The translations under genes and the position numbers were made by a program. Source: Rhodospirillales bacterium (GTDB lineage Bacteria; Pseudomonadota; Alphaproteobacteria; Rhodospirillales; UBA2165). Taken from it: 64,000 bases of DNA. The DNA is taken from the NCBI GenBank assembly GCA_046582495.1, contig JAYGEG010000160.1, positions 81,236-145,235 on the forward strand. The letters are read 5' to 3'. Shown piece after piece: positions 46,668-64,000 of this stretch (positions are counted from its first letter, which is position 1; each line of letters begins with the position of its first letter). The notes beneath the pieces were generated by a model. That model was given only the letters and a program-made list of their open reading frames with translations. It was not told the origin of the DNA and made no database searches.

Positions 46668-47588
46668 TTAAACATCTGCTTTTGGATCGAGCGCATCCTG
46701 CAGGCCATCACCTAGGAAATTAAAGGCGATCACGGTGATAAAAATCGCAATTCCCGGATAAAAAGCGAGCCAGGGCGCGCTGAAAATCAATTCCTGAGCA
46801 TTTGTCAAAAGATTACCCCAGCTGGCAACCGGCGGCTGAATGCCAAGGCCGAGAAAACTTAAAACTGATTCCAGCAGGATTATGTTGCCGATGGAAAGCG
46901 TTGTCGCGACAATAATAGGCGAAATTAGATTTGGCAGAATGTGAACGCTCATGATGCGAAAGGCACTTGCGCCCTGCACCTGGGCGGCGAGTACAAAATC
47001 TCGTTCGCGCAAACTTAATGCCGCCCCTCGAACTAGCCGCGCCACCGTTGTCCAGCCAACGACGGCAACAATAAATATAATGCGGTAAAGACTGATATTC
47101 TCGGATTGAATAATCGTCTCGGGCAAGCCGGTTTTAGAGAGGTCAATCGCCGCTAAAACAATCAGTAGAGGAAGCAGGGGAAGGGAGATAACGCTGTCGG
47201 TGAGCCGCATCAGGACGGCATCCAGCCAGCCACCGCGATAACCTGCGATCAATCCAATAATAGTTCCTAAAGTTGCGGCAACGAGGGCGGTTACCAGACC
47301 AACCAAGAGAGATACCTGCCCGCCATAGAGCATTCTTACAAATACATCGCGGCCTAATTCATCTCGGCCCAGCCAAGCACCTAAATCTGGCAAGGTGAAA
47401 CGGCTAAATAAATTTGCCTTGTTAGCATCAATATCCAGCAAGAATTCAAATAACGGCGCAGAAGCTGACAACAGACAGATGAAGATGAGATAGCACCCAC
47501 TGATGACCGCAAGTTTGTGTTTAAGGAAACGTCTGCCGGCCAGCGCCCAAGTTGATTGGCTTTTTGATTGAACTGCAAGCGTGCTCAT
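46668..47588 (-). CDS. ABC transporter permease (DppC/OppC type)
   Basis: A six-TM protein with an EAA-loop region ('SLRERDFVLAAQVQGAS') in BPD_transp_1 style. Confidence 0.85.
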   Translation of the reverse strand: MSTLAVQSKSQSTWALAGRRFLKHKLAVISGCYLIFICLLSASAPLFEFLLDIDANKANLFSRFTLPDLGAWLGRDELGRDVFVRMLYGGQVSLLVGLVTALVAATLGTIIGLIAGYRGGWLDAVLMRLTDSVISLPLLPLLIVLAAIDLSKTGLPETIIQSENISLYRIIFIVAVVGWTTVARLVRGAALSLRERDFVLAAQVQGASAFRIMSVHILPNLISPIIVATTLSIGNIILLESVLSFLGLGIQPPVASWGNLLTNAQELIFSAPWLAFYPGIAIFITVIAFNFLGDGLQDALDPKADV

Positions 47589-48554
47589 CTATTTGCCCTC
47601 GCCATATGAAATGCGTGGGTCAAGCCAGCCATAGGCGATGTCTGCTACCAGATTGCCAAGCAATGTCAAAACAGTGGCGAACATAAAAGCGACCATGGCG
47701 AGGTTGAAGTCATTGCCCATAATCGCATCAAAGATCAGTTTTCCCATGCCGGGATAGGCGAATATCGTTTCAGTGATGAGTGCGCCGGAGAACAAAAAGC
47801 CAAAGTCTAAGGCAAGTATCGTGACCACCGGGATGAGCGCGTTTCTAAGTGCGTGATGCCAGACAACTCGAGCCTCAGTCGCGCCTTTTGCCCGTGCGGT
47901 GCGGATAAAGTCCTGGCGCATCGTTTCCATCATTGCAGCGCGGACAAATCGGGTATGACTGCCGATGCTGGCAATAGTTAAGGTCGCAATTGGCAAGATG
48001 AGAAATTTAGCACTATCCCAAAAGCTCGAGAGCCCGCCGATTGTTTCTGTGCCACTCGCGGGCAACACACCCAGAATAACTGAGAACAGCGTTATTAACA
48101 GCAGTGCCAACCAGAAAGATGGAATGGAAATGCCGGCGAAGGCAGCAAGATTGATCAGATAGTCGGTTCCGGTATATTGCCGGATGGCGGCATAGATACC
48201 AGCCGGCAAGGCGAGCAGAACCGATAAGATAAAACTAATACCGAGTAAAATAACGGTGTTGCCAAGGGCTGGCCACAAAACAGTAAGGACAGGTTTCACA
48301 TGAAGGCGCGAAAAGCCAAAATCGCCGCCAATAGCTGCGGTCAACCAATTCACATATCGTTCCGTGATGGGGCGGTCGAGTCCGTAGAGTTCTCGTAAGC
48401 GAATTGCATCTTGGGCCGTGAGTTTAGGGTCCGCGCTGATCATCAGATCGATTGGGTCGCCCGGCATCAAACCCATCAGCCAATAGATGACAAAAGACAT
48501 CATCGCCAAAACGATCAGGGATTGAAGCAATCTATCTAACAGATATCGCGCCAC
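47589..48554 (-). CDS. ABC transporter permease (DppB/OppB type)
   Basis: The N-terminus 'ARYLLDRLLQSLIVL' and the region 'QDFIRTARAKGA' are typical. GTG start. It directly abuts the next permease gene. Confidence 0.85.
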   Translation of the reverse strand: MARYLLDRLLQSLIVLAMMSFVIYWLMGLMPGDPIDLMISADPKLTAQDAIRLRELYGLDRPITERYVNWLTAAIGGDFGFSRLHVKPVLTVLWPALGNTVILLGISFILSVLLALPAGIYAAIRQYTGTDYLINLAAFAGISIPSFWLALLLITLFSVILGVLPASGTETIGGLSSFWDSAKFLILPIATLTIASIGSHTRFVRAAMMETMRQDFIRTARAKGATEARVVWHHALRNALIPVVTILALDFGFLFSGALITETIFAYPGMGKLIFDAIMGNDFNLAMVAFMFATVLTLLGNLVADIAYGWLDPRISYGEGK

Positions 48555-48573
48555 GTCAGTTTCTCTTTCTCAT

Positions 48574-48597
48574 AAAAAAACCTGCCAATTGGCAGGT
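48574..48597 (-). terminator. Rho-independent terminator after the flaF-like gene
   Basis: acctgcc (48580-48586) pairs with ggcaggt (48591-48597) around loop aatt. On the minus strand it is followed by a seven-T run (48574-48580, the last base shared with the stem). It lies only ~20 nt upstream of the permease start. Confidence 0.6.
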
Positions 48598-48648
48598 CAT
48601 TTTAGAACGTTCCGGCGATTATGGCGACCGCCGGTGTATCGGGGGATA

Positions 48649-48960
48649 TTAAGCGCCTTCCATCAGGCCTTCAGCAATATTCAAATTTATATTGGTCAGA
48701 CCTCTTGAAGTTTGTTTATCAACGAAAATGCTAAGGCTCATCAGATTGGCTTTGAGCTCTTCCGGAAGCGCATTGTCCTTTTCGGCGACATCAGCTTGGA
48801 TAATTGACCATAGCAACTGATTGTATTTCAGCGCTCTTTCACCCATTTCGGTATCGTCTACTTTCTGGCGAGCTTGACCTAAAACATACGCTGCTTGCGA
48901 AAATGCGGCAGCATCCATCTCACGCTTATTGTCAAATTGAACTTTTGCTTCGTCAGCCAT
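48649..48960 (-). CDS. FlaF-like flagellar biosynthesis regulator (orphan)
   Basis: 'YNQLLWSIIQADVAEKDNALPEELKANLMSLSIFVDKQTS...NLNIAEGLMEG' follows the FlaF pattern I recall (N-x-x-LW...N-x-LP-x-x-L+A-x-x-x-SL-x-x-W/F-V). SD 'agggga' lies 8 nt upstream. Confidence 0.5.
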   Translation of the reverse strand: MADEAKVQFDNKREMDAAAFSQAAYVLGQARQKVDDTEMGERALKYNQLLWSIIQADVAEKDNALPEELKANLMSLSIFVDKQTSRGLTNINLNIAEGLMEGA

Positions 48961-49101
48961 GTGGTAATCCCCTAAATTGGCATCATTATCAGCATTCGAC
49001 CCTAATCGAATAGGCTAAATAAAATGTTAAAAAAATATACGGCATTTTTTCGGCTATGTACAAATTTTGTTAGCGTTTTTATACATTACTGAAAAAAGTT
49101 C

Positions 49102-50067
49102 TTATTTTTCAGGACTTACAGCTATCGGGCAGGCTGCGAGGTGGGAGGCATCTTGAGACCCGATATAATCCAATAGAGGTATCGTTTCACGGCAAGAATT
49201 CGCCATTTTTGGGCATCTTGGGTGGTAGGCACATCCACTCGGAGGAGACAGCGGACTGGCTGCCTCGCCGCGCAGCAACAGGCTCTTTTTGCGCTTGCCG
49301 CGCCCGATAATTGGAGCCGCTGATATCAATGCCTGCGTGTAGGGGTGAATTGGATTTTTAAAAATTGATTCGGATTGGCCAATTTCTACGATTTTCCCTA
49401 AATACATGACGATAACTCGGTCAGCGAGATGGGCGACGGATGCTAAATCGTGACTGATGAACAAATAGGTTAAATTTCGCTCTTTTTTCAGATTTACCAG
49501 TAGATTTATAATTTGGCTTTGGATCGATACATCGAGGGCGGAAAGCGGCTCATCGGCGATGATGATTTCAGGGTCGGAAATGATGGCGCGAGCAATTGCG
49601 ATACGCTGACGCTGCCCGCCGCTGAATTGATGAGGATATTTCATCATGTCACTTTCTTGAAGGCCAACGCTTTCAAGAGTTTCAATCACGCGTCGGCATT
49701 TTTCGGCAGCATTTCCAATTTTATGAATAACGAGAGGCTCCGAAATAATATCGCCAACCGTCAATCTTGGATTAAGCGAGGCATAAGGATCCTGGAAAAT
49801 CATTTGAATGTTTTTTCTTAAATCAGTGCCTCTATATTCAATGGTGCCGTTGTCAGGCTGATGAAGCCCGGTGATAACGCGCGCCAAAGTTGACTTTCCG
49901 CAGCCTGACTCGCCGACGATAGCCAGCGTTTCTCCCGCCTCAAGTGTCAGCGATATGTCGTTTAAGGCATGGACCGTTCCCCGTGAGGCGCCAAACAATC
50001 CCGGTGCTTTTAACTCGAAGCGCTTAACAAGATTGTCGATTTTTAATAACGCTGCAGTTTCCGTCAT
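49102..50067 (-). CDS. ABC transporter ATP-binding protein (DppF/OppF type)
   Basis: Walker A 'GESGCGKST', signature 'FSGGQRQRIAIARA', Walker B 'IIADEPLSALD' and an Opp C-terminal extension are present. Confidence 0.9.
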   Translation of the reverse strand: MTETAALLKIDNLVKRFELKAPGLFGASRGTVHALNDISLTLEAGETLAIVGESGCGKSTLARVITGLHQPDNGTIEYRGTDLRKNIQMIFQDPYASLNPRLTVGDIISEPLVIHKIGNAAEKCRRVIETLESVGLQESDMMKYPHQFSGGQRQRIAIARAIISDPEIIIADEPLSALDVSIQSQIINLLVNLKKERNLTYLFISHDLASVAHLADRVIVMYLGKIVEIGQSESIFKNPIHPYTQALISAAPIIGRGKRKKSLLLRGEAASPLSPPSGCAYHPRCPKMANSCRETIPLLDYIGSQDASHLAACPIAVSPEK

Positions 50068-51041
50068 ATCGGCTCTTCAAGTTTTAAGCAGGCGGCGCGT
50101 TGCCTTGGGGCGAGTTCAAAGGTCGGAATATCGTGCAGATGGCATTCGGATATCGCTTCGCTGCAACGCGGCGCAAATCGGCAGCCTTGCAATTGGTCAT
50201 AGCGGGTCGGTACGCTGCCCTCAATTGTCGTGAGCTGCTTTCCTCGGTGTTCGGGCCCCGGCAAGGTCGATAGCAATCCTTTGGTATAAGGGTGCTCGGG
50301 TGCTTCGAATATTATCGGCGCCGGCGAGGTTTCCATCAATCGTCCGCCATACATCACCATAACATCATCAGCAATTTCGGAGACGACGCCAAGATTATGA
50401 CTGATGAACAGGATCGCCATTTTAAATTCTTCCTGCAGGTCGATCAGGAGATCAAGGATTTGAGCCTGCACCGTTGTGTCCAAGGCCGTCGTCGCTTCGT
50501 CAGCGATCAAGATGTCTGGCTCGCATATCAACGCCATTGCAATAACCGCGCGCTGGCGCATGCCGCCGGATAGATTATGTGGGTAGTCCTGAGCCCGCAA
50601 AGCTGCATCCGGGATGCCGACGCGGTCCAGCATCGAAATTGCCTTTTGATTGGCTTCTTGTTTGGAGCAATCACTATGAATTAAAAGAGCTTCGGCAATT
50701 TGCGCACCGATCGTCAAAACCGGATTGAGCGCCGTCATCGGTTCCTGGAAGATCATCGCGATCGTGTTGCCACGGAGTTGCCGCATCGGTTCCTTTGCTA
50801 ATTGGAGGATATCTTCTCCATTCAGGTAGATTTCGCCGGCAGAAATTTTTCCAGGCGCAGGAATCAGACGCAACAGCGATAGCGCTGTAAGAGATTTGCC
50901 GCTGCCGCTTTCACCGACCAGTCCCAAGGTTTTTCCGGCCTCCAATTCAAAAGATAATTCCGAGACCGCGCGAAACAGGCCATCTTCTAATTGGAAGCTG
51001 ATTTCCAAATCTTTGACCGAAAGGAGGGGGACGCTATTCAT
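50064..51041 (-). CDS. ABC transporter ATP-binding protein (DppD/OppD type)
   Basis: Walker A 'GESGSGKS', signature '[12 protein letters not shown]' and Walker B '[11 protein letters not shown]' are present. It has a 4-nt overlap with the next ATPase gene and an 8-nt overlap with the upstream fusion gene. Confidence 0.9.
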
Positions 51042-53937
51042 TTTCGGCTTCCAACATGTTCGCCTCTTTCAAATGCAGAGGATTGATATGCTCATGGGCT
51101 AAATCAGGTTCGCCGCAATGTTCCAAAATAGCTGACCTGACACGGTTCCGTAAATCTATCGCAGATTGCCAGCTTTGGTCAGCACTAGATGTCTCAGGCG
51201 TAATCGACGGCAAAATTTCAACCTGGATGCGTCCGGGACGAGGAAAGCCTGTATCATCTCGCAATATGGCGCGCGTGCCACGCAACGCTATCGGGACAAT
51301 CACTGCCTTAGCATTGGTGGCGGATGTGAAAGCGCCCATTTGAAAAGGCAGCAGGCCTGTCATTCTGGTGAATGTCCCTTCGGGGAAATACACCAATTGG
51401 CGATCCTGTTCGATTGCCTCTGTCACCAAATCGGAATCCTCGACGCTTTTTGATTTTTGAAAGCGCTCGACAAACACGGTTCCGAGTCTTGTCAAAAATA
51501 GGCGCGAGATGAAATTGCCAGCCAGTTCGGACTTTGCGACAAATCCTGGCATACCCGGAAGTAATGAAATCAGTGCGGCAGCATCAACGTAACTCGCGTG
51601 GTTGGAGACAAATATAAATCGCTGGTCCTGTGGGATGTTTTTTTGTCCCGATATGGAAAGCTGTATGTTGCCAAGCCGAAACACCAGCCAAAGAATAACC
51701 CGCAAAAACGCAAACCGTAATGCCTTTATCGGCAACAGAGCCGTGGCGATCCAGGCGATTGGGGTTGCCACCGCCATTAGTGCATACATATAAATTGCGT
51801 AGGCCCAGGAAACTGTGGAACGGACAGCCTGTTGAAAGCTCGGTCGAATGCCGGCTACCGCCAATCTAAATATTTGCCATTTTACCGACATTCGGGATTG
51901 GTTCGCTGTAAGCCCTTGTTCGAATAATGCTCGTGCTGCGGCGCGGCGAATTTTGCCGCTCGAGGTCTTGGGCACTGTTCGGGGTGGGACCAGCTCGATT
52001 TGATCCGGCGGCGTGCCGGTTAAATCAAGTGCAATGGATCTGATCTCTGAAATCATTTTCTGTTGAGCATCTTTGCCTCGCCTTCGAGATTCTGCCATCA
52101 CGACAAGTCGTTCCGTGCCGGAAGTTGGATCTGGGCTGCCAAAGACCGCGACATTGCCTTTCTGAATGCCGTCAATCAAACCGACCGCTTCTTCTAATTC
52201 GACGGGGAATATGTTTCTGCCAGCTCGAATGATCAAATCTTTCTGACGGCCCGTAATAAATATCTCGCCATCCGCCATATAGCCGAGGTCGCCGGCATTG
52301 CGCCAATCGCCGTCCATCAAATCATTCGTTGCCTGTGCATTGCGGATATAGCCCGAGGTAGAGGAGGGGCCAAAAAATTGAACCTGGCCTTCCTGGCGTT
52401 CCGGCAGCTCATGTCCGGTTGGGCCGACGATCCTGATTTGATGGCCGGGCAAAGCACTGCCGCAAGAAGGAATTTCCATGGCGCTTTCATCCTCAAATTT
52501 GGACGGCCGGGCGATACCGGACTTCATAAATGTATCGCGGTCAATTTTATCGATGCGGGGCCCGCGTTCGAGAGGTGAAAAAGATAAGCCGACCGAGTTC
52601 TCTGCCAGACCATAGACAGGCTTCATCGCCTCAGCGCGAAATCCATATCGAGCAAAGCGTTCGGTAAATTGTGCCATTGTTTTGGGGCTAACCGCTTCAG
52701 CACCATTAAACGCCACCCGCCATGAGCTTAGATCCAAGCCTTCCAAATCTTCGTCTTTCAATCGATTGACGCAGGCTTCATAGGCAAAATTCGGCGCGCC
52801 GGAGATCGTTCCTTTATAGCGATGGATGGCTTGCAACCAGCGTTGCGGACGCGCCAGAAAACTCAGCGGAGACATAATAACCAACGGAACGGCATGGGTT
52901 AGACTGCCAAGCCACGCTCCGATCAATCCCATATCGTGATAGAGCGGCAGCCAGGAGATAAAAACATCTTCGCAGGTTGCGTTGAGCGCTTTTCCCATCA
53001 CGCGCACATTGCTGACGAGATTGCTGTGACTTAGGACCACGCCTTTAGGGTCGCCCGTGCTGCCCGACGTAAACTGCAAAAAAGCGGTATCGGATTCTAC
53101 AGGCTCTGGAAAACGACTAAGCGGCGCGGCGCTCATGAGTTCATCACAGGTTATCACGTCTCGAAGCGATGGCACTTGAGCGGATAATAAATGTGAGAAC
53201 ATTTTGGCTTCTGGCACGGTAATCATCAGGCCAGCCAGAGCGGTATCCGCAATTTTGGCATGGCGTAAAATATGATCTTCTAATTGTTGAGGACGTCCAG
53301 GAGGATAAATCGGTACCGGCACACCACCGGCGAGCAGCACGCCGAAAAAACTAATGAAATAATCGCGCCCGGTTGGCAGCATCAATAGAACGGATTCGCC
53401 CGGCGACAAGTGGCGTTCAATCAATCCGGCAGCGATTTTTTCGGCTTCGACCAATAATTCACCGTAGGTGATTGTCTCTGCCGGGACATCCTCTGAGTTT
53501 GTGTCTGAATAAAGATGGATATGGATGCGCTCGGGATGCTGGGCAGCGTGCCATTTCAGAATCGCATTCAAAGTGCCGAGCTCCTCAGGGGCAGGCGCTG
53601 CTTTCTCAGGTTGCTGAGTTTTGATCGTCGTGAGTGTTGCAGAAGCAACTTCTGATCCACCCGCTTCCATGAGAATATCTTTGAGGGTATCGGATTGACT
53701 GAGCGCCCGTTCTGAAAAAGTAATTTTAAACTCTTGTTCTACGCGATGGAGGAGTTCAAGGCGTGATAGACTGTCGAAACCAAGATCGCGCTCTAACGAT
53801 TTTTCAAGTGAAACGATTTCGGACAATTTCTGTCCCGGGTGAAGCTCCTCCGCCAGTTCGGCTGCGAGGGCCAGCAGGCGCTCCGGTGAAACAACGGGTG
53901 AGAGATTATTCGAGATATTATTAGAGGTTTCGCTCAT
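51034..53937 (-). CDS. Tri-domain fusion: acyl carrier protein + fatty-acyl-AMP ligase (FAAL-type adenylation) + TM segment + PlsC/LPLAT acyltransferase
   Basis: ACP: 'LGFDSLSRLEL' (Ser56). Adenylation: 'FTSGSTGDPKGV', 'SWLPLYHDMGLIG', 'YGLAENS', 'GDLGYMADGEIFITGRQKDLII', 'KTSSGKIRR'. A hydrophobic stretch spans about aa 708-755. LPLAT: 'NHASYVD' (HX4D, aa 779-785), 'FPEGTFTR', 'VIVPIALRGT'. Confidence 0.85.
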   Translation of the reverse strand: MSETSNNISNNLSPVVSPERLLALAAELAEELHPGQKLSEIVSLEKSLERDLGFDSLSRLELLHRVEQEFKITFSERALSQSDTLKDILMEAGGSEVASATLTTIKTQQPEKAAPAPEELGTLNAILKWHAAQHPERIHIHLYSDTNSEDVPAETITYGELLVEAEKIAAGLIERHLSPGESVLLMLPTGRDYFISFFGVLLAGGVPVPIYPPGRPQQLEDHILRHAKIADTALAGLMITVPEAKMFSHLLSAQVPSLRDVITCDELMSAAPLSRFPEPVESDTAFLQFTSGSTGDPKGVVLSHSNLVSNVRVMGKALNATCEDVFISWLPLYHDMGLIGAWLGSLTHAVPLVIMSPLSFLARPQRWLQAIHRYKGTISGAPNFAYEACVNRLKDEDLEGLDLSSWRVAFNGAEAVSPKTMAQFTERFARYGFRAEAMKPVYGLAENSVGLSFSPLERGPRIDKIDRDTFMKSGIARPSKFEDESAMEIPSCGSALPGHQIRIVGPTGHELPERQEGQVQFFGPSSTSGYIRNAQATNDLMDGDWRNAGDLGYMADGEIFITGRQKDLIIRAGRNIFPVELEEAVGLIDGIQKGNVAVFGSPDPTSGTERLVVMAESRRRGKDAQQKMISEIRSIALDLTGTPPDQIELVPPRTVPKTSSGKIRRAAARALFEQGLTANQSRMSVKWQIFRLAVAGIRPSFQQAVRSTVSWAYAIYMYALMAVATPIAWIATALLPIKALRFAFLRVILWLVFRLGNIQLSISGQKNIPQDQRFIFVSNHASYVDAAALISLLPGMPGFVAKSELAGNFISRLFLTRLGTVFVERFQKSKSVEDSDLVTEAIEQDRQLVYFPEGTFTRMTGLLPFQMGAFTSATNAKAVIVPIALRGTRAILRDDTGFPRPGRIQVEILPSITPETSSADQSWQSAIDLRNRVRSAILEHCGEPDLAHEHINPLHLKEANMLEAENE

Positions 53938-54125
53938 TGACTAAAACTACTCTAATTTCTAGTCTTTCGCTATGCAGCATTGTGGTGACATTGGTCACAG
54001 ATTACTGATCATTCTTTTGCCATAATTACTGCACATATATTGAATTCGGTCGGCAAAAAATCAATTTATAGAGTGTAAACGAGTCTGTATAATTCAATAA
54101 TCAAAATTAAATAGCGTGGAAAACA

Positions 54126-54503
54126 ATGAATAGATTTCTCAAATTTGGTTTGATAGCAGTGTTGGTGTCGTCAGGCACGCTAGGCTTTTCTTTTGGTAAA
54201 GCCTCGGCGAGTGAACGAGTGCATCTGTCCCCCTTCATGGTCAATGTGATTGAAGACGGCGGCAAAAAAACAGGTCAGCTGCCGATTTCTGTTTATCTTG
54301 ATCTCAAAGATGTAGAGTCAGCGAGATATGTCTGTGGCATCGCACCCAGAATTCGGGCTCAAATTACCCGAAATTTGGTCTCTGATAGATATCAATTGGA
54401 TCGCAAGGGCAGATTACCATTAGCTAAAATTCGGCTCAAACTCTGGCCAATTGCCTATAGAGTTATAAAAAATGTGAAACTACAAAATATGCTGGTTGCA
54501 TAA
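54126..54503 (+). CDS. Small secreted/anchored protein, weakly FliL-like
   Basis: It has an N-terminal hydrophobic signal or anchor. 'HLSPFMVNVIEDGG...LPISVYLDLKD...APRIRAQITRNL' resembles the FliL core pattern. Recognition is weak. Confidence 0.35.
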   Translation: MNRFLKFGLIAVLVSSGTLGFSFGKASASERVHLSPFMVNVIEDGGKKTGQLPISVYLDLKDVESARYVCGIAPRIRAQITRNLVSDRYQLDRKGRLPLAKIRLKLWPIAYRVIKNVKLQNMLVA

Positions 54504-54592
54504 GGCACAGGCAAGGTTAGTAGTTCTGAAGCACGTATGTTTACCCGGCGAGATTGCCGCCGTCTTTCGAAAGGGAAATAGTTGAGGTAACC

Positions 54593-54627
54593 TCCCTCCA
54601 AATTGTTATATTTTTTATTTGGAGGGA
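54593..54627 (+). promoter_or_regulatory. Hairpin that pairs the Shine-Dalgarno of the alpha/beta hydrolase gene
   Basis: tccctccaaa (54593-54602) pairs perfectly with tttggaggga (54618-54627) around a 15-nt AT-rich loop. The 3' arm contains GGAGGG (54621-54626), 4 nt before the ATG at 54631. Confidence 0.45.
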
Positions 54628-54630
54628 TTT

Positions 54631-55449
54631 ATGGGGTTCGATGGCACCTTTGCAGCTTGCAGTGATATCAAAATTTTTTATGGCATAAGCGGCAGCGGAC
54701 CGCGGCTCCTATATATCAGTGGAACCGGCGGTGATCTAAGACGTCCTCAGAATGCCTTAACCTCAAGTTTTCCAGATCATTTTGAAACGCTCAGCTATGA
54801 TCAGCGCGGGCTCGCGCAGACCGATAAGCCTGACGCTCTCTACAGCATGGCACAATACTGCGAAGATGCCGCAAATCTGCTGGATGTTGTTGGCTGGGAC
54901 AGTTGTTTTGTTATGGGAATTTCTTTTGGCGGCATGGTCGCTCAGGAACTCGCCATTCGGCATCCGGGCCGCGTTAAAAAGCTCGTGCTTGGCTGCACTT
55001 CCACCGGAGGCGCGGGCGGATCATCCTATCCGCTTCACGAATTACAGGACATGCCGCTTGAAGAAAAAATAAAATTTCGAATGTCAAAAAATGACACGCG
55101 CCTGAACGAGCAATGGCAGCAGGACAATCCTGAAAAATTCCAGGAGCTTTTTGATAAGGCGCTAGAGACGGCAAATTTCGCCAAAGATGATCCGGGCAAG
55201 GCGATGGGCTCAAGGCGTCAGCTTGAAGCGCGCGCGGAACACGATACCTTTGACAGGGTAGTGGATTTAACAATGCCGGTATTGGTCTGCGGCGGGCGTT
55301 ATGACGGACAGGCTGAGCCCCAAGTCGTCGAAAATCTTGCAAAACGAATTCCGGGTGCTGAGCTGGCCTATTTCGAAGGCGGACATTTTTTCTTAGCGCA
55401 AGACCTCGCCGCATCACAAAAGATAACTGAATTTTTACTATCGGAATAA
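54631..55449 (+). CDS. Alpha/beta-fold hydrolase
   Basis: Nucleophile elbow 'GISFGG', an oxyanion-region N-terminus and a C-terminal 'GGHF' (catalytic His) are present. The start is set at ATG 54631; the track ORF begins at TTG 54619. Confidence 0.8.
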   Translation: MGFDGTFAACSDIKIFYGISGSGPRLLYISGTGGDLRRPQNALTSSFPDHFETLSYDQRGLAQTDKPDALYSMAQYCEDAANLLDVVGWDSCFVMGISFGGMVAQELAIRHPGRVKKLVLGCTSTGGAGGSSYPLHELQDMPLEEKIKFRMSKNDTRLNEQWQQDNPEKFQELFDKALETANFAKDDPGKAMGSRRQLEARAEHDTFDRVVDLTMPVLVCGGRYDGQAEPQVVENLAKRIPGAELAYFEGGHFFLAQDLAASQKITEFLLSE

Positions 55450-55458
55450 AATAAAAAC

Positions 55459-56691
55459 ATGTCAGAAAAGCCGCACGAGCGCATAGCCGAGATTAAACGT
55501 AAAGCCGATGAGGGCCCAACCATCCTGCAACATAGTTTTCGTCCCTTTTTTATGTCGGCGGGACTTTGGGCAACTCTGGCTGTGCCGTTTTGGCTGTTGA
55601 GCTTTGCTGGTGTTCTGGTTCTACCCGAAGGCTTTGATGGACTGCTTTGGCATCAACATGAACTGCTGTTTGGGTTCGCTGGCGCTGCGATTGCCGGCTT
55701 CATTCTGACTGCCATTCCGAATTGGACAGGTCGCTTGCCGGTGAGTGGCTGGCGGTTGGCTGTGCTCGTTGCGATGTGGATTGCTGGCCGGGTTGGATTT
55801 TTGACGATTGCCTGGATTGGGCCATTAGCGGCGGCAGTGTTGGACCTATCTTTTTTGACCATGCTCGCATTGATGATCGCGCGCGAACTAATCTCCGGTA
55901 ATAACTGGCGAAACCTGCCTGTGCTTATCCTGATTTCGTTTTTCACTTTAGGCAATTGGTTGGTGCATTTTGAAATTAGCGGCCTCGTCGAAACAGCAGA
56001 TATGGGTATTCGGCTATCGACCTTCATTTTGGCCATTCTGGTTGCTGTGATTGGCGGGCGCGTTGTGCCAAGCTTTACCCGCAACTGGCTGGTAAAAAGT
56101 GGTAGCGATGTCTTGCCGGAACCTATGGGACGATTTGACGGTGTGGCTCTGGCGGCGCTTATTGTTTTTGTTATCGCTCAAGTCTTAATGCCGGATATTC
56201 AAGTGACCTCTTGGCTGGCGCTCATTGCCGGAGGGCTACACGGGGTTCGATTGTTGCGCTGGAAAGGTTGGGCGATTTTCGCTGAACCTTTGATGTGGGT
56301 ACTGCATTTGGGCTACGCCTGGCTCGTCGTGGCGCTTTTATTGATTGGCGCATCTGGGTTAACCGACAACGTTCCAGATTCTGCGGCGATCCACGCGCTT
56401 ACTGCTGGTGGGTTCGGCACCATGATTGTTGCCGTTATGACGCGGGCATCGCTCGGCCATACTGGGCGAGAGTTGGTTTCCACGCCCGCAACGACGGTCG
56501 TTTTCATTTTAATTACGATAGCTGCACTTACGCGAGTAGGAGCGCCGTTCCTCAATGATCTAAATCTCACGGCTATTTGGATTTCCGGCATTGCCTGGAC
56601 GTTTGGCTATGGGCTTTTCAGCGTCCTCTATTTCCCGGTGTTCACTCAGCCTCGTGTGCAAAAGCGCCAAGCAAATCAGGTTTCTGAATAG
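55459..56691 (+). CDS. NnrS-family membrane protein
   Basis: A ~12-TM protein whose N-terminal 'FRPFFMSAGLWA' and conserved His ('WHQHELLFGF') are typical of NnrS. Confidence 0.8.
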   Translation: MSEKPHERIAEIKRKADEGPTILQHSFRPFFMSAGLWATLAVPFWLLSFAGVLVLPEGFDGLLWHQHELLFGFAGAAIAGFILTAIPNWTGRLPVSGWRLAVLVAMWIAGRVGFLTIAWIGPLAAAVLDLSFLTMLALMIARELISGNNWRNLPVLILISFFTLGNWLVHFEISGLVETADMGIRLSTFILAILVAVIGGRVVPSFTRNWLVKSGSDVLPEPMGRFDGVALAALIVFVIAQVLMPDIQVTSWLALIAGGLHGVRLLRWKGWAIFAEPLMWVLHLGYAWLVVALLLIGASGLTDNVPDSAAIHALTAGGFGTMIVAVMTRASLGHTGRELVSTPATTVVFILITIAALTRVGAPFLNDLNLTAIWISGIAWTFGYGLFSVLYFPVFTQPRVQKRQANQVSE

Positions 56692-56694
56692 GCG

Positions 56695-58353
56695 CTACTT
56701 CTTAACGCCCCAGTTTTCGATCCACAAAGTGGTCGTGCCTTGATGCCCGGTTGGTGTTACGCCGGTCAGCCATTTTGGCAAAATGTAAGAATTGGCACGG
56801 AAGTAGAGCGGAATTACGGGCAACTCTGTCGCATATATTTGTTGGAAGCGATGCCAGAGCTTTTCGCGTTTTGTTCGATCCAATTCGACTTCAATTTGCT
56901 CGAGCAGTGTATCCATCTCAGCATTTTTAAAACCGGTGTAATTTTGTCCGCCCCAGTTGTTTTCCTTGGTCGGAATATGGGCCGAATGAAGCGTTGAGCG
57001 CGGCACGCTTTCAGGCGCGCTGAGCCAGGCAAACATCGCAAGACCTGTGTATTTTCGCTGAGTGACGGTCTGGCCAAAGAAAACCCGGGCGGGTTGGTTG
57101 CGGATTCGGATTTCGACTCCGAGCTGCTTCCATTGGCTTTGCAAGACCTGCTCAACCAATTCGCGGGTTCGATTGCCCGCTGTCGTCATCAGCTCAAATG
57201 AAAGTTTGTCACCCTTGGCATTGTAGCGAATGCCGCGTTTTTTAATCGACCAGCCGGCCTGGTCCAGAAGCTTGCCAGCGGCCTTGAGATCGAAGCTATA
57301 GATCGGCGTGTTTTTTGTATAAATCCAATCGAGCGGATTGATGTTGGTGTCGGCGACCGGTTGGCGGCCGTCAAACAACTGACTTGAGATCGCTTGACGG
57401 TCGATGCCGCGGATCAGCGCTTCGCGTACGCGTTTATCTTTGAGCAAAGGGTTGTCAAGATTGAGATCAATATGCTCGTAGATCAGGCCCGATTTGTAAA
57501 TCATGTTGAATTTCTTGCCGTGACGTTTGCCGAAGGCCAACGCCTGATCGATGGTGATGCCGAGATCGCCAGAGATCATATCGATTGCGCCTGACAACAA
57601 ATTTGCTTCGAGCGCAGCGGTGTTACCAATCACGCGTATAACAACTTGTTTGAAGTGCGGTTTTTTGCCCCACCAGGTTTCGTTCGGCACCAGCACAACA
57701 TGCGCGCCAGACCTTACTTCGCTGATCCGGTAGGGACCAAAATACAGCCCTTTGTTGGTCGTGTCGGTATCAAATCTGGTGCGGTTGCGGTATTCGGCGG
57801 GCGCTTTATCGAATATTTCTTCGTCGAGATGCGCGGGCAGTACTTCGAAACCGTTTATATCGTTATAGGCAAATGTCAGCTTGTCGAAATGCAGCGTGAA
57901 GGTTTTTTCATCAATGGCATCGACTTTGTAGGCACGGCGATAGAATTCCAGCCCGCTCACACCGCTTTTTGGATGGCGACCCACTTTCCAGGTAAAGATG
58001 ACGTCTTTGGAGGAAACCGGACGGCCATCGCCCCAATTTGCATTTGGCTGGATGGTATACGTAACGGCGATGCCTTTTTTACCGTTGGGCGCGGTCTCAG
58101 GCTTGGCGAGGCCATTCTCAATGGTCGGTAGTTTTGTGCAGAGCATGCATTTTAACTGCCAACTCGGGTCCTGTACGGTGAACGGCCGCCGAGTTGCCGA
58201 CAAAATATAGGTCTTCGCCAGCATGGAATCGATATTGGGATGAAAGGTCGACGGGAATTGCGTGATACCAATGACGAGGCGTTCCTTTGCCTCGGCAAGA
58301 CTGGTGAAAGCAATCACCAGACCCGCTATTATTGTGATTAGAAGTCGTTTCAT
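56695..58353 (-). CDS. ABC transporter substrate-binding protein, family 5 (peptide/nickel type)
   Basis: It has a signal peptide, is 552 aa long, and shows SBP_bac_5-like sequence. It is convergent with nnrS and separated from the rest of the ABC genes. Confidence 0.88.
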   Translation of the reverse strand: MKRLLITIIAGLVIAFTSLAEAKERLVIGITQFPSTFHPNIDSMLAKTYILSATRRPFTVQDPSWQLKCMLCTKLPTIENGLAKPETAPNGKKGIAVTYTIQPNANWGDGRPVSSKDVIFTWKVGRHPKSGVSGLEFYRRAYKVDAIDEKTFTLHFDKLTFAYNDINGFEVLPAHLDEEIFDKAPAEYRNRTRFDTDTTNKGLYFGPYRISEVRSGAHVVLVPNETWWGKKPHFKQVVIRVIGNTAALEANLLSGAIDMISGDLGITIDQALAFGKRHGKKFNMIYKSGLIYEHIDLNLDNPLLKDKRVREALIRGIDRQAISSQLFDGRQPVADTNINPLDWIYTKNTPIYSFDLKAAGKLLDQAGWSIKKRGIRYNAKGDKLSFELMTTAGNRTRELVEQVLQSQWKQLGVEIRIRNQPARVFFGQTVTQRKYTGLAMFAWLSAPESVPRSTLHSAHIPTKENNWGGQNYTGFKNAEMDTLLEQIEVELDRTKREKLWHRFQQIYATELPVIPLYFRANSYILPKWLTGVTPTGHQGTTTLWIENWGVKK

Positions 58354-58408
58354 GATGCGACTGTACCTGCTCTTGCCGACAACTCAATTTAAAAAAACCG
58401 TGATAGGG

Positions 58409-58433
58409 GGAAGATTTTCGCTGCAAAGGCGTT
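58409..58433 (+). promoter_or_regulatory. ECF-sigma-like promoter motif GGAAG-N16-CGTT upstream of TPR paralog 1
   Basis: ggaag (58409-58413) and cgtt (58430-58433) are separated by exactly 16 nt. The same arrangement is conserved upstream of paralog 2. Confidence 0.3.
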
Positions 58434-58471
58434 TACACAATAGGAAAGTTATCTGCATAGGGAGAATGCAT

Positions 58472-58984
58472 ATGGTGTATTCAATGAAACGCAGGTTTTG
58501 TACTTTGATTATTACACTACTCCTTGCTCTGTCGATATCTGCTTGGCAAGTCAATGCTGCGGGCGGAGGTGGTGGAGATGATGACGTGGACAAACCTGTT
58601 TCCGATGAGCAAATAAATTTTGATGCGGGTGTACGGGCTGTCTACGCTGGGAAATATGACAAAGCCATCGAACTCATGGCCAAAGTCCTGAAAGATAATT
58701 CAAAAAATGCCGATGCCTATAACTATTTAGGTTTTTCTTTTCGCAAAAAAGGCGATCTCAAGCTGGCGGCGTCCGCCTATAAGGAGGCACTCGACATCAA
58801 TCCAGATCACAAAGGCGCACTGGAATATCAAGGTGAGATGTATCTGAAGCTTGGTAATGTTTCGCGCGCAAAATCTAACCTCTTCCATCTTGAACGGCTG
58901 TGCTCCAATGGCTGCAAAGAGTTGGCCGAACTGAAACGAGCGATCGCCGATTACGCAGCAACGCACCCGAACAGAGGGAGTTAG
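58472..58984 (+). CDS. Secreted TPR-repeat protein, paralog 1
   Basis: It has a signal peptide ('LLLALSISAWQVNA'), TPR repeats ('ADAYNYLGFSFRKKGDLKLAASAYKEALDINPDHKGALEYQGEMYLKLGN') and a C-terminal 'LERLCSNGCKELAELKRAIADYAA'. The start is ATG 58472 (GGAGA 6 nt upstream) or 58484. The 240-aa track ORF is rejected. Confidence 0.7.
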   Translation: MVYSMKRRFCTLIITLLLALSISAWQVNAAGGGGGDDDVDKPVSDEQINFDAGVRAVYAGKYDKAIELMAKVLKDNSKNADAYNYLGFSFRKKGDLKLAASAYKEALDINPDHKGALEYQGEMYLKLGNVSRAKSNLFHLERLCSNGCKELAELKRAIADYAATHPNRGS

Positions 58985-59023
58985 CTGTTCCAGCACCCCG
59001 TTCAAAGTAAAAACCGCGATAGG

Positions 59024-59048
59024 GGAAGATTTTCTCTTTAAAGACGTT
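59024..59048 (+). promoter_or_regulatory. ECF-sigma-like promoter motif GGAAG-N16-CGTT upstream of TPR paralog 2
   Basis: ggaag (59024-59028) and cgtt (59045-59048) lie within a ~50-nt block conserved with the paralog 1 upstream region. Confidence 0.3.
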
Positions 59049-59087
59049 TACACTATAAGAATGGCTGTTCGTATCTGGAGAACTTCA

Positions 59088-59573
59088 ATGAAACCTGCAA
59101 TATTTACCATAGCTGCTGCGATGCTATTAAGTTTTTCACTTACCTCGGCACCAGTGCTCGCTATGGGCGGCGGCGACACTAAAACCGTCGATACATCTAA
59201 GCAGGATTTTGCGGCTGGCAAGAAAGCTGTATATGCCGCGAAATATAACAAGGCTATTATGCTGATGACCAAGGTCTTGAAGTCAGATTCCAAAAACACC
59301 GATGCTTATAATTATCTCGGGTTCTCCTACCGCAAAAAAGGTAATCTTAAGCTCGCGGCTGCATCTTACAAAGAAGCGCTCGATATCAATCCAAACCATA
59401 AAGGCGCACTTGAGTATCAAGGCGAGATGTATCTAAAGCTCAATAATTTCTCCGCAGCAAATTCTAATCTTGCGCATCTTGAACGGCTTTGTTCGTCTGG
59501 CTGCAAAGAATTAGCGGAGCTAAAACGCGCTATTGCCGATTATGCAGCAACGCGTCCTGCTCGGGGTAGTTAA
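59088..59573 (+). CDS. Secreted TPR-repeat protein, paralog 2
   Basis: It is roughly 70% identical by eye to paralog 1 over the mature region and has the same 'LERLCSSGCKELAELKRAIADYAA' tail. ATG 59088 has GGAGA 6 nt upstream. Confidence 0.7.
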   Translation: MKPAIFTIAAAMLLSFSLTSAPVLAMGGGDTKTVDTSKQDFAAGKKAVYAAKYNKAIMLMTKVLKSDSKNTDAYNYLGFSYRKKGNLKLAAASYKEALDINPNHKGALEYQGEMYLKLNNFSAANSNLAHLERLCSSGCKELAELKRAIADYAATRPARGS

Positions 59574-59578
59574 TTAAT

Positions 59579-60268
59579 CTATTCGGCACGTCCGTCGTTA
59601 GCCTTTGACCAGCCAAGTGGATCGGCGAGGAAATCACGCACGCCTTGGATATCTTCGTTTGAGAAATATTTACCCTGTTCGGCTTGCTCCAGCACATCCC
59701 ACCAATTGGCAAGGTAGTGGAGATTGACGCCGGCTTTTTCCATGGTTTCTTCGGCGCCGGGAAATGCGCTGTAATAAAATACAACAAAAATGTCGGTGAC
59801 TTCGGCGTCTCCTGCTCGCAGGGCATCTATAAACATGACTTTGCTGCCGCCATCGGTCGCGAGATCTTCAACTAATAGAACTTTACTGCCTTCAGGCATG
59901 TCGCCTTCGATTTGCGCGTTGCGGCCAAAGCCTTTGGGTTTTTTGCGAATATAGAGCATCGGTTTCGAAAGAGCTTCTGAAATCCAGGCTCCGTAGGGGA
60001 TGCCAGCAGTTTCGCCGCCCGCGACCAAATCCAGCGCATCTATATCTATCGAGGAGCGGAGCAGGTCAACGCTGAGCTCGATAATTTTGCGGCGTTCTTC
60101 GAGGAATGAAATCACCCAGCGGCAATCGATATAGACCGGGCTGGCCCATCCAGCAGTCAAGATGTAGGGCTCTTTTGGACGGAAGTTAACCGCCTTGATA
60201 TCGAGCAGCATTTTAGCTGTCTCTGCGCCTGCTGCTTTTTGCTCTGGTGATCTCGTGTCGTTTACCAT
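59579..60268 (-). CDS. pyrE: Orotate phosphoribosyltransferase (long alphaproteobacterial form)
   Basis: The PRPP-binding motif 'VLLVEDLATDGGSK' is present in a 229-aa protein. Confidence 0.9.
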   Translation of the reverse strand: MVNDTRSPEQKAAGAETAKMLLDIKAVNFRPKEPYILTAGWASPVYIDCRWVISFLEERRKIIELSVDLLRSSIDIDALDLVAGGETAGIPYGAWISEALSKPMLYIRKKPKGFGRNAQIEGDMPEGSKVLLVEDLATDGGSKVMFIDALRAGDAEVTDIFVVFYYSAFPGAEETMEKAGVNLHYLANWWDVLEQAEQGKYFSNEDIQGVRDFLADPLGWSKANDGRAE

Positions 60269-60395
60269 TTATTACCCCAAACAATATATAAACTGGACTT
60301 CGATAAAGTCGGTATAGAATAAACTAGGTTTAAAAGTGATTCGGCCATCTTGTAAATAGATGTGAGCATAAAAGAATCATCGGTGGAATAAATTA

Positions 60396-60683
60396 ATGGC
60401 GCGTGACAATTCTAAAGCCCAAGATCTGGTGGGCAAGGGGGCCGAGGCTCACCAAGCCGGTCAATTCGACAAAGCGGAAAAGTATTACAAACGCGCGTTA
60501 AAAGCCGATGGTAATAACGCAGATGCGCTTCACCTATTGGGCCTGATATCTCATCAAAAAGGGCGAAATGAATACGCAGCTAAATTGATTGGTAAAGCTT
60601 TGGCGGTCCGACCCCATGAGCCCGCGATGAACACTCAATATGGCGATTGTTATGAACGCTTTGTCGCGCTGGGAAGAGGCTGA
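60396..60683 (+). CDS. TPR-repeat ORF, probably the frameshifted 5' part of the downstream TPR-sulfotransferase gene
   Basis: TPR sequence ('AEKYYKRALKADGNNADALHLLGLISHQKG') runs to about aa 80 and then degenerates. The TPR pattern continues in the +1 frame at about 60630. Confidence 0.4.
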   Translation: MARDNSKAQDLVGKGAEAHQAGQFDKAEKYYKRALKADGNNADALHLLGLISHQKGRNEYAAKLIGKALAVRPHEPAMNTQYGDCYERFVALGRG

Positions 60684-62385: not shown

Positions 62386-62396
62386 TGACGAGGTAA

Positions 62397-62714
62397 TTAA
62401 TTGCCTTTGCGGCGGATTGTATACCCGTCATCGGTCAATCCGCTAAAATGCATTCTGACATCCGGATGACGAATAGGATCACCGCTATCATCGGGCTCTA
62501 GGTTGCGCTGGGCGACGTAGGTTCTGAGATCGCTTTCGTCGACGAGCACGTGATACCAAGGATTGTCTTTGGGTGGCTTTGAAGTCGCCATATGACTGTA
62601 CCAATTATCGGAGCCATGAAAATCCGCATCCACATCGATAATGACGCCTCGATAATCGAAGCGCTTGTGGTGGACCAATTGTCCAACTGAAAATAAAGCC
62701 TTGGTCTCAGACAT
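62397..62714 (-). CDS. hspQ: Heat shock protein HspQ / hemimethylated DNA-binding (YccV) family
   Basis: 'FSVGQLVHHKRFDYRGVIIDVD' and 'PWYHVLV' are diagnostic of this family. Confidence 0.85.
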   Translation of the reverse strand: MSETKALFSVGQLVHHKRFDYRGVIIDVDADFHGSDNWYSHMATSKPPKDNPWYHVLVDESDLRTYVAQRNLEPDDSGDPIRHPDVRMHFSGLTDDGYTIRRKGN

Positions 62715-62845
62715 GTAGTCAATAACCCCAATGTGAATATCTCTAGAGTACTGTATATAAGTGAGGATTATGATACTCGATTTCCAGTTAAAAATTAAAT
62801 GTTGGACTTGGAAACATCTCCAAAACGAGGCAAATTGAACTTGGA

Positions 62846-63874: not shown

Positions 63875-63891
63875 TTGGAAGTCACGCTCTA

Positions 63892-64000
63892 ATGGATACC
63901 GGAACTCTCATTATTTTTGCTGGCATTTCAATCATCTTTATTGGATTTGCGTTAGCGTTCCAAGCTGTTGTCGGGCAACCGCGCAAACAAATGGCAAAAC
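63892..64000 (+). CDS. Partial ORF, hydrophobic N-terminus (membrane protein; 3' end outside window)
   Basis: ATG 63892 gives 'MDTGTLIIFAGISIIFIGFALAFQAVVGQPRKQMAK', open to the window edge. GGAAG lies ~10 nt upstream. It is too short to assign. Confidence 0.3.
   Translation, partial: MDTGTLIIFAGISIIFIGFALAFQAVVGQPRKQMAK

Follow-up and report, generated by a model that had tools for sequence, protein, structure and literature searches.

A carrier protein–fatty acyl-AMP ligase–acyltransferase fusion from a Rhodospirillales bacterium belongs to a large uncharacterised family and may relay free fatty acids to a membrane acceptor

The stretch of DNA analysed here (the window, 64,000 nucleotides of contig JAYGEG010000160.1 from the Rhodospirillales bacterium assembly GCA_046582495.1) encodes a 967-aa protein in which an acyl carrier protein (ACP)-like domain, a fatty acyl-AMP ligase (FAAL) and a membrane-anchored acyltransferase of the lysophospholipid acyltransferase (LPLAT)/PlsC type follow one another on a single polypeptide. 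From its conserved motifs and its modelled fold, this protein is probably a three-step relay, which would activate a free fatty acid, hold it on its own carrier domain and hand it to an acceptor in the membrane. A fuller reading, in which the relay would be independent of both coenzyme A (CoA) and the cellular carrier AcpP and would act on a lysophospholipid-type acceptor, seems to us slightly favoured. The protein is best filed among the bifunctional fatty-acid-activating and lipid-acylating enzymes, here with a FAAL and a carrier in cis. The family to which it belongs is very large and has been catalogued but not characterised; the fusion of a FAAL with an LPLAT has already been noted in print and its chemistry is predictable from the domains.

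The open reading frame (ORF) lies on the minus strand at 51034..53937 and starts with ATG. Its parts are the following, in coordinates of the window and residues of the product.

51034..53937, minus strand: whole ORF; carrier domain, FAAL, then membrane-anchored LPLAT; 967 aa
53656..53886, minus strand: carrier (ACP-like) domain, aa 18-94, from Pfam and, as a four-helix bundle, from the helices of an AlphaFold2 (AF2) model
53770..53772, minus strand: codon of Ser56 (translates to S), the predicted 4'-phosphopantetheine site
53575..53655, minus strand: flexible linker, aa 95-121 (~27 residues), variable in sequence and length
51907..53574, minus strand: FAAL domain, aa 122-677, from Pfam, NCBIfam, PDB sequence matches and Foldseek
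52849..52872, minus strand: counterpart of the FAAL-specific helix, aa 356-363 (SPLSFLAR), aligned to T252-R258 of Escherichia coli FAAL (EcFAAL)
52459..52560, minus strand: FAAL-specific insertion, aa ~460-493, from a gapless alignment to the insertion region of EcFAAL 3PBK
51673..51885, minus strand: membrane anchor, aa 685-755, a PlsC-type two-helix motif by hydropathy, AF2 helices and superposition on 5kym
51184..51666, minus strand: LPLAT/PlsC catalytic core, aa 758-918, from Pfam PF01553 and Thermotoga maritima PlsC (TmPlsC) 5kym
51583..51600, minus strand: HX4D motif, H780-A-S-Y-V-D785 (translation HASYVD)
51100..51183, minus strand: family-specific C-terminal helix and GEPDL motif, aa 919-946, from invariant columns beyond the end of TmPlsC

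A Pfam search of the 967-aa protein returned exactly three domains, PP-binding, AMP-binding and Acyltransferase (PF01553), each above its gathering score. This bears out a preliminary description of the locus, made from the DNA letters, which had placed carrier, adenylation and PlsC/LPLAT domains on one polypeptide; the motifs it quoted (LGFDSLSRLEL, VPVPIYPP, FTSGSTGDPKGV, SWLPLYHDMGLIG, KTSSGKIRR, NHASYVD and FPEGT) were all found at the residues given. Conservation was assessed in an alignment of 25 homologues with 50-75% identity to the target, some of which were labelled by source as Rhodospirillales, Gammaproteobacteria, Campylobacterota or Desulforhabdus. Every catalytic motif of the carrier, FAAL and LPLAT domains was invariant in this alignment. 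Hence none of them is degenerate, and the HX4D and adenylation motifs are intact, as had been supposed. The full-length AF2 model used below had a pLDDT of 75.5.

The carrier domain matched Pfam PP-binding (PF00550) at aa 39-88 with an E-value of 1.7e-8 (35 bits for a cut-off of 20.8), while the NCBIfam ACP models matched the region weakly, below their own cut-offs. In the AF2 model, helices were observed at residues 18-32, 56-70, 76-81 and 85-94. Within the carrier motif G53-x-D55-S56-L57, residues G53, D55, S56 and L57 were invariant in 25/25 homologues and, together with the significant PP-binding match, this upholds the earlier assignment of Ser56 to a phosphopantetheine motif. The linker that follows was poorly conserved, with insertions and deletions across alignment columns 101-140 of the 25 sequences, and its AF2 pLDDT dropped below 50 at aa 97-109.

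The central domain matched Pfam AMP-binding at aa 128-530 (E 4.5e-64). FAAL models ranked at the top of the NCBIfam matches of the full protein, yet all scored below their curated cut-offs (422.8 bits for the best, NF006624, with a cut-off of 600), so that the adenylation domain is, on these profile scores, FAAL-like but outside every curated FAAL subfamily. The closest PDB sequences were likewise FAALs, namely 7r7g (an olefin-synthase FAAL), 3pbk (EcFAAL) and 3kxw (a Legionella FAAL), and in Foldseek the full-length model superimposed on EcFAAL 3pbk with a template modelling (TM) score of 0.91 and a root-mean-square deviation of 3.1 Å. We then located the core motifs of the ANL superfamily with the patterns T/SSGSTGxPKG (A3), YGxxE (A5), GD (A7), GRxKD (A8) and the catalytic lysine of A10. 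The corresponding elements of the target, FTSGSTGDPKGV (A3), YGLAE (A5), GDLGY (A7), TGRQKD (A8) and K662 (A10), were invariant in the 25 homologues. FAALs are known to reject CoA through the bulky residues W224, M231 and F279, P226, a FAAL-specific helix at T252-R258 and a FAAL-specific insertion (EcFAAL numbering), with the helix blocking the canonical CoA pocket (Patil et al., 2021; PMC8460268). When the target was aligned to 3PBK, the counterparts of these residues were W329, P331, M336 and F384, all invariant in the homologues, as were P357, L358, F360 and R363 within the helix. With these CoA-rejection residues, the helix and the insertion conserved, and with the best sequence and fold matches being FAALs, the domain is, judged by sequence, of the FAAL type and not of the CoA-ligase type, in agreement with the preliminary description.

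Although the adenylation domain was 27-33% identical to the FAALs with which it was compared (EcFAAL 3PBK, LpFAAL 3KXW, the olefin-synthase FAAL 7R7E and FadD32), with TM scores up to 0.91, it differs from them in its setting. Those FAALs hand their acyl chains to polyketide synthase (PKS), nonribosomal peptide synthetase (NRPS) or olefin-synthase modules, whereas the domain downstream of the target's FAAL is a glycerolipid-type acyltransferase. Moreover, the carrier stands N-terminal to the FAAL, unlike in the stand-alone or ACP-fused FAALs compared.

The C-terminal part matched Pfam Acyltransferase (PF01553) at aa 761-885 with an E-value of 5e-25 (88 bits, cut-off 23), and it matched TmPlsC (5kym) with an E-value of 2e-12 as a single sequence and 3e-28 with the family profile. 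The LPLAT motifs were invariant in the alignment: H780 and D785 of HX4D, F822-V823-x-R825 of motif II and E853-G854 of motif III. By analogy with other LPLATs, Arg825 would be expected to bind an acceptor phosphate. When the region was scored against NCBIfam, the top match was the generic AGP_acyltrn (TIGR00530; 86.6 bits, cut-off 102.95), followed, among named LPLAT models, by MFS-LPLAT-AAS (71 and 60 bits), OlsA (50 and 46), the E. coli-type Aas (44) and PlsC (40). The ranking leans to LPLAT domains of the Aas type, a weak lean that falls short of assigning the acceptor. An alternative is a PlsC- or PlsB-like enzyme, which would acylate lysophosphatidic acid (LPA) or glycerol-3-phosphate, so bringing exogenous or recycled fatty acids into de novo phospholipid synthesis independently of CoA and AcpP, and take no part in lysophospholipid repair. 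The sole solved relative of the C-terminal domain, TmPlsC, is an LPA acyltransferase, motifs I-III are present, AGP_acyltrn is the top match, and several homologues were named 1-acyl-sn-glycerol-3-phosphate acyltransferase by the Joint Genome Institute (JGI). However, the AGP_acyltrn score lies under its cut-off and that for the PlsC equivalog NF011593 reached 40.3 bits against a cut-off of 501, the EGTR arginine is displaced, and the JGI names are automatic and of domain level only. We therefore regard a role in de novo synthesis as unlikely.

The preliminary description had counted a hydrophobic stretch at about aa 708-755 as a fourth module. Hydropathy confirmed that the stretch is there, but in the models it is the N-terminal two-helix anchor of a PlsC-type enzyme, so the protein is one of three domains, with the membrane stretch belonging to the PlsC fold. 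The helices of the anchor are a short amphipathic one, a long hydrophobic one (697-734) and one that is both basic and amphipathic (738-755); the family-averaged hydropathy reached its maximum at aa 712-736, with the Arg-rich amphipathic helix 738-755 coming after it. The sequence alignment to TmPlsC begins where PlsC residue 64 meets target residue ~760 and leaves the first 63 residues of PlsC, its two-helix membrane anchor, opposite ~697-760. An AF2 model of aa 680-967 (pLDDT 85, pTM 0.79) placed two helices before the core, at local residues 18-55 and 59-76, and in Foldseek it covered all 241 residues of 5KYM, N-terminus included, with TM scores of 0.69-0.74. A single transmembrane pass at aa 712-736 was considered and dropped: the region fits the monotopic two-helix motif of PlsC, and a single pass would leave the FAAL and carrier facing the opposite side from the LPLAT. 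One hydrophobic helix with a basic amphipathic helix fits, in the model, the monotopic insertion that a carrier shuttle requires, as with such an anchor the acyltransferase active site would face the cytoplasm together with the FAAL and the carrier, all on one side of the membrane.

Compared with TmPlsC (5KYM), the target shares the whole-length fold, the two-helix anchor, HX4D and EGT, at an identity of only 18-19%. PlsC is a stand-alone enzyme supplied with acyl-ACP in trans, and the target adds a C-terminal helix and GEPDL. In this extension, W923, R930, R934 and L938 of the helix and then G-E-P-D-L at 942-946 were invariant in the 25 homologues. The full-length AF2 model has a helix at 919-941 and low confidence beyond it. 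It is speculation that this basic helix, beside the active site, would suit the docking of an acidic carrier domain.

E. coli Aas is a 2-acylglycerophosphoethanolamine acyltransferase and acyl-ACP synthetase, which re-acylates lysophospholipids together with the flippase LplT. The target resembles E. coli Aas in joining, on one polypeptide, an ANL-superfamily fatty-acid activator to a PF01553 acyltransferase, in having an acyl-ACP thioester as its expected intermediate and in the membrane transporter gene that is often adjacent. The sequences of Aas and LplT of E. coli K-12 were taken from the annotated genome. By BLASTP, target residues 283-631 aligned to Aas 366-676 (26% identity) and 742-913 to Aas 3-161 (24%). 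The segments are thus permuted, LPLAT-AAS in Aas and ACP-FAAL-LPLAT in the target, which agrees with the opposite domain order pointed out earlier. Beyond the order, the activating domain of the target belongs in the FAAL clade, with the FAAL-specific insertion and helix, unlike that of Aas, and the target has its own carrier domain whereas Aas binds AcpP. The Aas equivalog NF005959, with a cut-off of 886, scored the LPLAT region at 44 bits and was absent from the best 25 NCBIfam matches of the full protein, and no LplT-like gene was found near the target. Hence the term "Aas-like" in the preliminary description stands for the permuted alignment of the domains and falls for membership of the Aas family. 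The proposal that the protein works like Aas comes from the chemistry of its domains and from a modest neighbourhood signal; with a lysophospholipid, the likeliest acceptor, it would be a functional analogue of Aas, of which it is not an orthologue.

The best named match to the LPLAT region came from the fusions of a major facilitator superfamily (MFS) transporter with LPLAT and AAS domains (NF006386 and NF005291, named acyl-[ACP]--phospholipid O-acyltransferase; 71 and 60 bits as given above), in which a transporter, an acyltransferase and an activating enzyme have repeatedly been joined in bacteria. The target differs from these fusions, which have another domain order, no carrier and an AAS-type activator, and its full-protein scores for the two models were 191 and 153 bits against cut-offs of 1221 and 1349.

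The architecture is not unusual: in a survey of its distribution the same domain order proved to define a very large family, and the FAAL-LPLAT fusion is already in print. Among the best 120 of 8000 scored homologues, nearly all carried PP-binding, AMP-binding and Acyltransferase domains in that order. In genome contigs, a single-protein query gave no matches and an alignment-based query did; the profile search, with one genome per species, revealed at least 598 species genomes encoding the architecture. The carriers among the matches listed included Alpha-, Beta- and Gammaproteobacteria, Desulfobacterota, Campylobacterota, Nitrospira, Acidobacteriota, Entotheonella, Planctomycetia and metagenome-assembled genomes of Actinomycetota. 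A metagenome scan added 593 further stretches with the architecture. After clustering at 50% identity, more than 100 of the best 150 representatives were full-length proteins of 910-980 aa, and alpha-, gamma-, Campylobacterota and Desulfobacterota members were ~50% identical to one another. Such breadth and conservation, as read from the sequences, would be usual for an enzyme with a housekeeping function.

Among cultured bacteria, the gene is carried by Methylocystis parvus, Mesorhizobium delmotii, Imhoffiella purpurea, Thiocystis violacea, Malikia granosa and Desulforhabdus amnigena, and it is found on plasmids or chromids in, among others, Methylobacterium nodulans ORS 2060 (WP_012631269.1), Cupriavidus oxalaticus, Paraburkholderia phymatum STM815 and Sinorhizobium sojae. 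Every annotated homologue that we inspected was named just "AMP-binding protein". FAALs fused to lysophospholipid acyltransferases have been listed among unusual FAAL architectures (Patil et al., 2021; PMC8460268), and a second survey of FAALs (2026) also mentions the fusion without studying it (PMC12820801).

To see what accompanies the gene, we examined the neighbourhoods of 87 genome loci and of an independent sample of 80 metagenome loci (167 related loci in all). All-against-all clustering of the neighbours at the 87 genome loci gave no universal partner gene and most neighbours were singletons; the lack of a conserved partner fits a self-contained enzyme. No PKS or NRPS gene was found in the window or near the gene in the 167 related loci. 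This absence bears on the possibility that the carrier and FAAL only pass a loaded fatty acid on to another, downstream enzyme, whether a PKS, an NRPS or something else, while the acyltransferase serves as an anchor only or is inactive. Such a division of labour would bring the protein close to the known FAALs, but the invariance of HX4D and of motifs II and III from phylum to phylum argues, on sequence conservation, for a catalytically active acyltransferase. We consider it extremely improbable.

The only neighbour recurring across classes was one orthologous group of Atg22-like MFS transporters (PF11700). Its gene adjoined that of the fusion at 10/87 genome loci (L026, L028, L030, L035, L039, L060, L061, L066, L069 and L078), often overlapping it or lying within 70 nt, and these loci spanned Alpha-, Beta- and Gammaproteobacteria and Desulfobacterota. 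A hidden Markov model (HMM) built from these transporters found members at 7/80 metagenome loci (L098, L110, L134, L139, L151, L159 and L166; 419-577 bits), five of the seven within ~110 nt, and none in the window. Loci where the two genes overlap include L060, L066 and L134. The transporter holds the position beside the gene that lplT has beside aas, without being detectably related to LplT: by Pfam the recurrent transporter is ATG22 and LplT only MFS_1. To our knowledge, no function has been assigned to bacterial members of the Atg22-like MFS family.

A weaker recurrence was that of a FadD11-like fatty acid-CoA ligase gene, which adjoined the FAAL-LPLAT gene at 7/87 loci and sometimes overlapped it (for example at L091 5098-6756, L092 5242-7017, L013 10880-12724, L059 and L064). 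At two Burkholderiales plasmid loci it lay directly upstream. On these Cupriavidus and Paraburkholderia plasmids, genes for a universal stress protein and a cation P-type ATPase (and FtsH in Cupriavidus) were present in the same 17-kb stretch, which resembles a low-oxygen or stress island. Placing the Burkholderiales homologues in the low-oxygen-activated (lxa) locus of Burkholderia cenocepacia was not supported, as a text search of the lxa paper found no acyltransferase, AMP-binding protein or ligase.

On M. nodulans plasmid pMNOD02 (L090 9752-11679), the genes directly downstream encode a hypothetical protein of 100 aa, a metallophosphoesterase and a small membrane protein with the annotation CDP-archaeol synthase. 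This is possibly a lipid-related neighbourhood and was seen only at L090.

Taken together, the domains suggest the following sequence of events. By homology, the FAAL domain would first adenylate a free medium- or long-chain fatty acid. Because the canonical CoA pocket of the FAAL is blocked, the acyl group would then move to the 4'-phosphopantetheine on Ser56 of the protein's own carrier. The acyl-carrier would next swing on the flexible linker to the C-terminal PlsC-type domain, held at the cytoplasmic leaflet, as predicted, by the two-helix anchor, and the His780/Asp785 dyad would move the acyl chain onto a hydroxyl group of an acceptor in the membrane. The Atg22-like MFS transporter, encoded beside the gene in about one-tenth of the genomes, could take the part played by LplT. 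A phospholipid-type acceptor is suggested by the conserved arginine of motif II, by the PlsC fold and by the score ranking that leans to Aas-type domains, as well as by the transporter neighbour in an lplT-aas-like arrangement and the housekeeping-like conservation.

Several observations weigh against a lysophospholipid-type acceptor or limit how far the relay can be taken. A literature search found no functional study of any member of the ACP-FAAL-LPLAT family. The arginine of motif III lies two residues later than in PlsC (EGTFTR vs EGTR) and, with this displacement, acceptor binding may differ. The scores of the LPLAT region are far under every equivalog cut-off, and those for the OlsA models nearly match the Aas-type ones. 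About 90% of the loci lack the Atg22-like transporter, and the idea that this transporter is LplT itself was rejected: BLASTP found nothing, there was no NCBIfam LplT match and the transporter HMM misses E. coli LplT. The lysolipid model also leaves unexplained the embedding of the gene in an ATP-binding cassette (ABC) importer cluster in the window's own lineage, described below. Finally, for ElbD of Myxococcus xanthus, the closest multidomain relative in the literature, acyltransferase activity was not demonstrable in vitro (PMC9131029).

ElbD, which is required for ether lipids, combines acyl-activating (ACS), ACP and acylglycerophosphate acyltransferase (AGPAT)-like domains (Lorenzen et al., 2014, as cited in PMC9131029), and ElbD-like homologues without the reductase domain have been reported in other phyla in the same review of myxobacterial plasmalogens. 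According to its description, ElbD has an N-terminal fatty acyl reductase-like domain, is encoded within the elb operon and was soluble when purified; the target, by comparison, has a hydrophobic anchor and no elb neighbours. Pfam detected no reductase domain in the target and no long N-terminal extension was seen among the best 150 of the 50%-identity representatives; neighbours of the elbB/elbE type (HAD-family or epimerase proteins) did not recur in the neighbour clustering of the related loci.

These comparisons bear on a specialised-lipid role, in which the acceptor would be a lyso-aminolipid O-acylated as by OlsA, an ElbD-like ether-lipid intermediate or another hydroxyl-bearing lipid or metabolite. 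The closeness of the OlsA scores to the Aas-type ones, the domain content of ElbD with its reductase-less relatives in other phyla, the metallophosphoesterase and annotated CDP-archaeol synthase genes just downstream in M. nodulans, and the usual employment of FAALs in specialised lipid pathways (PMC8460268) all speak for such a role. On the other hand, genes for OlsB, a reductase, AGPS or other pathway steps do not recur near the gene, the target itself lacks a reductase domain, and a family so broad and so strongly conserved looks more like one with a core function. A specialised acceptor is in our view rather improbable, a little more so than de novo phospholipid synthesis.

If the relay operates as proposed, many environmental and host-associated bacteria would put free fatty acids into their membrane lipids without drawing on acyl-CoA or acyl-AcpP pools. 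FAALs have so far been seen as enzymes that divert fatty acids from CoA towards the making of polyketides, lipopeptides and the virulence lipids of mycobacteria. In the ACP-FAAL-LPLAT family, large and invariant in length, the FAAL is wired through a built-in carrier to a glycerolipid-type acyltransferase. The relay would bear on membrane repair and lysolipid recycling, on the bypass of fatty-acid-synthesis inhibitors by exogenous fatty acids, and on the annotation of the many genome entries named "AMP-binding protein". Tentatively, the fusion and the Atg22-like MFS transporter might form a second bacterial system for the salvage of lysolipids or free fatty acids, widespread, non-orthologous to LplT/Aas and independent of CoA and AcpP, or else the family might make a common membrane lipid that has no assigned biosynthetic gene; we hold this pair of proposals to be possible but doubtful. 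As a salvage system, it would mean that FAALs have a primary function in the homeostasis of membranes in Proteobacteria, Desulfobacterota, Campylobacterota and other phyla. Sequenced isolates of well-studied genera have annotated full-length homologues, so genetics may be a direct route.

In the window, the gene sits on what looks like ordinary chromosome, with genes for aspartyl-tRNA synthetase, Dxs, a resistance-nodulation-division efflux pump, DinB and a tripartite ATP-independent periplasmic (TRAP) transporter; tRNA and Rfam scans of the window gave no matches. It lies inside an Opp/Dpp-type ABC importer cluster that covers 46668-58353 on both strands, in the order substrate-binding protein (SBP); divergent NnrS, α/β-hydrolase and small secreted protein; target; two ATPases; FlaF; two permeases. 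The features of this region are as follows.

56695-58353, minus strand: SBP
50064..51041, minus strand: Opp/Dpp-type ABC ATPase, directly after the target
49102-50067: second ABC ATPase of the cluster
47589-48554 and 46668-47588: ABC permeases of the cluster
48649-48960, minus strand: FlaF-like flagellar regulator (Pfam FlaF, E 5.6e-20), between the ATPase and permease genes
54126-54581, plus strand: small protein with a hydrophobic, signal-peptide-like N-terminus, divergent from the target
54619-55449, plus strand: α/β-hydrolase, PcaD-like by NCBIfam at a score well below the cut-off, divergently upstream; also in L007
60640-62385, plus strand: tetratricopeptide-repeat protein fused to a sulfotransferase (Sulfotransfer_3, E 1e-38); also in L001 and L002

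The ATG of the first ATPase gene overlaps the stop codon of the target by 8 nt (ATGAATAG), and the cluster order (SBP, then target-ATPase-ATPase-FlaF-permease-permease) is kept in the Rhodospirillales-like relatives L002, L006 and L007, whose FAAL-LPLAT proteins are only 53-59% identical. Overlap and retained order would both fit a partnership, in the Rhodospirillales lineage of the window, in which the enzyme works with the flanking importer by acylating or processing an imported substrate or receiving its acceptor from it. However, the arrangement is absent at the Desulforhabdus, Campylobacterota and Thiogranum loci, and the linkage is missing in Campylobacterota, Gammaproteobacteria and Desulfobacterota and at most of the other loci. 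By their matches, the components of the transporter belong to ordinary peptide/nickel/opine families, and the cluster has taken in a FlaF gene unrelated to it, so that the order may be a historical accident. The linkage to the ABC ATPase is a lineage-specific context, and a functional partnership with the importer appears very unlikely. No other flagellar genes were seen near the FlaF gene, and the same insertion occurs in L002, L006 and L007.

A protein 100% identical to the target (P0001) is encoded on JGI contig Ga0066376_10001275 (locus L001). Over ~14 kb, window 49919-63936 and L001 differed by 32 mismatches and three single-base indels; the window is either a strain closely related to L001 or a different assembly. 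The small protein at 54126-54581, which had no Pfam or NCBIfam match, has an in-frame TAG after 125 aa in the window where the JGI contig reads CAG (Gln) and encodes 151 aa, and its homologues in L002 and L007 are 149 aa long. The TAG reflects either a nonsense variant at the level of the strain or a difference in sequencing. Next to it, the α/β-hydrolase is conceivable as an esterase or lipase supplying free fatty acid.

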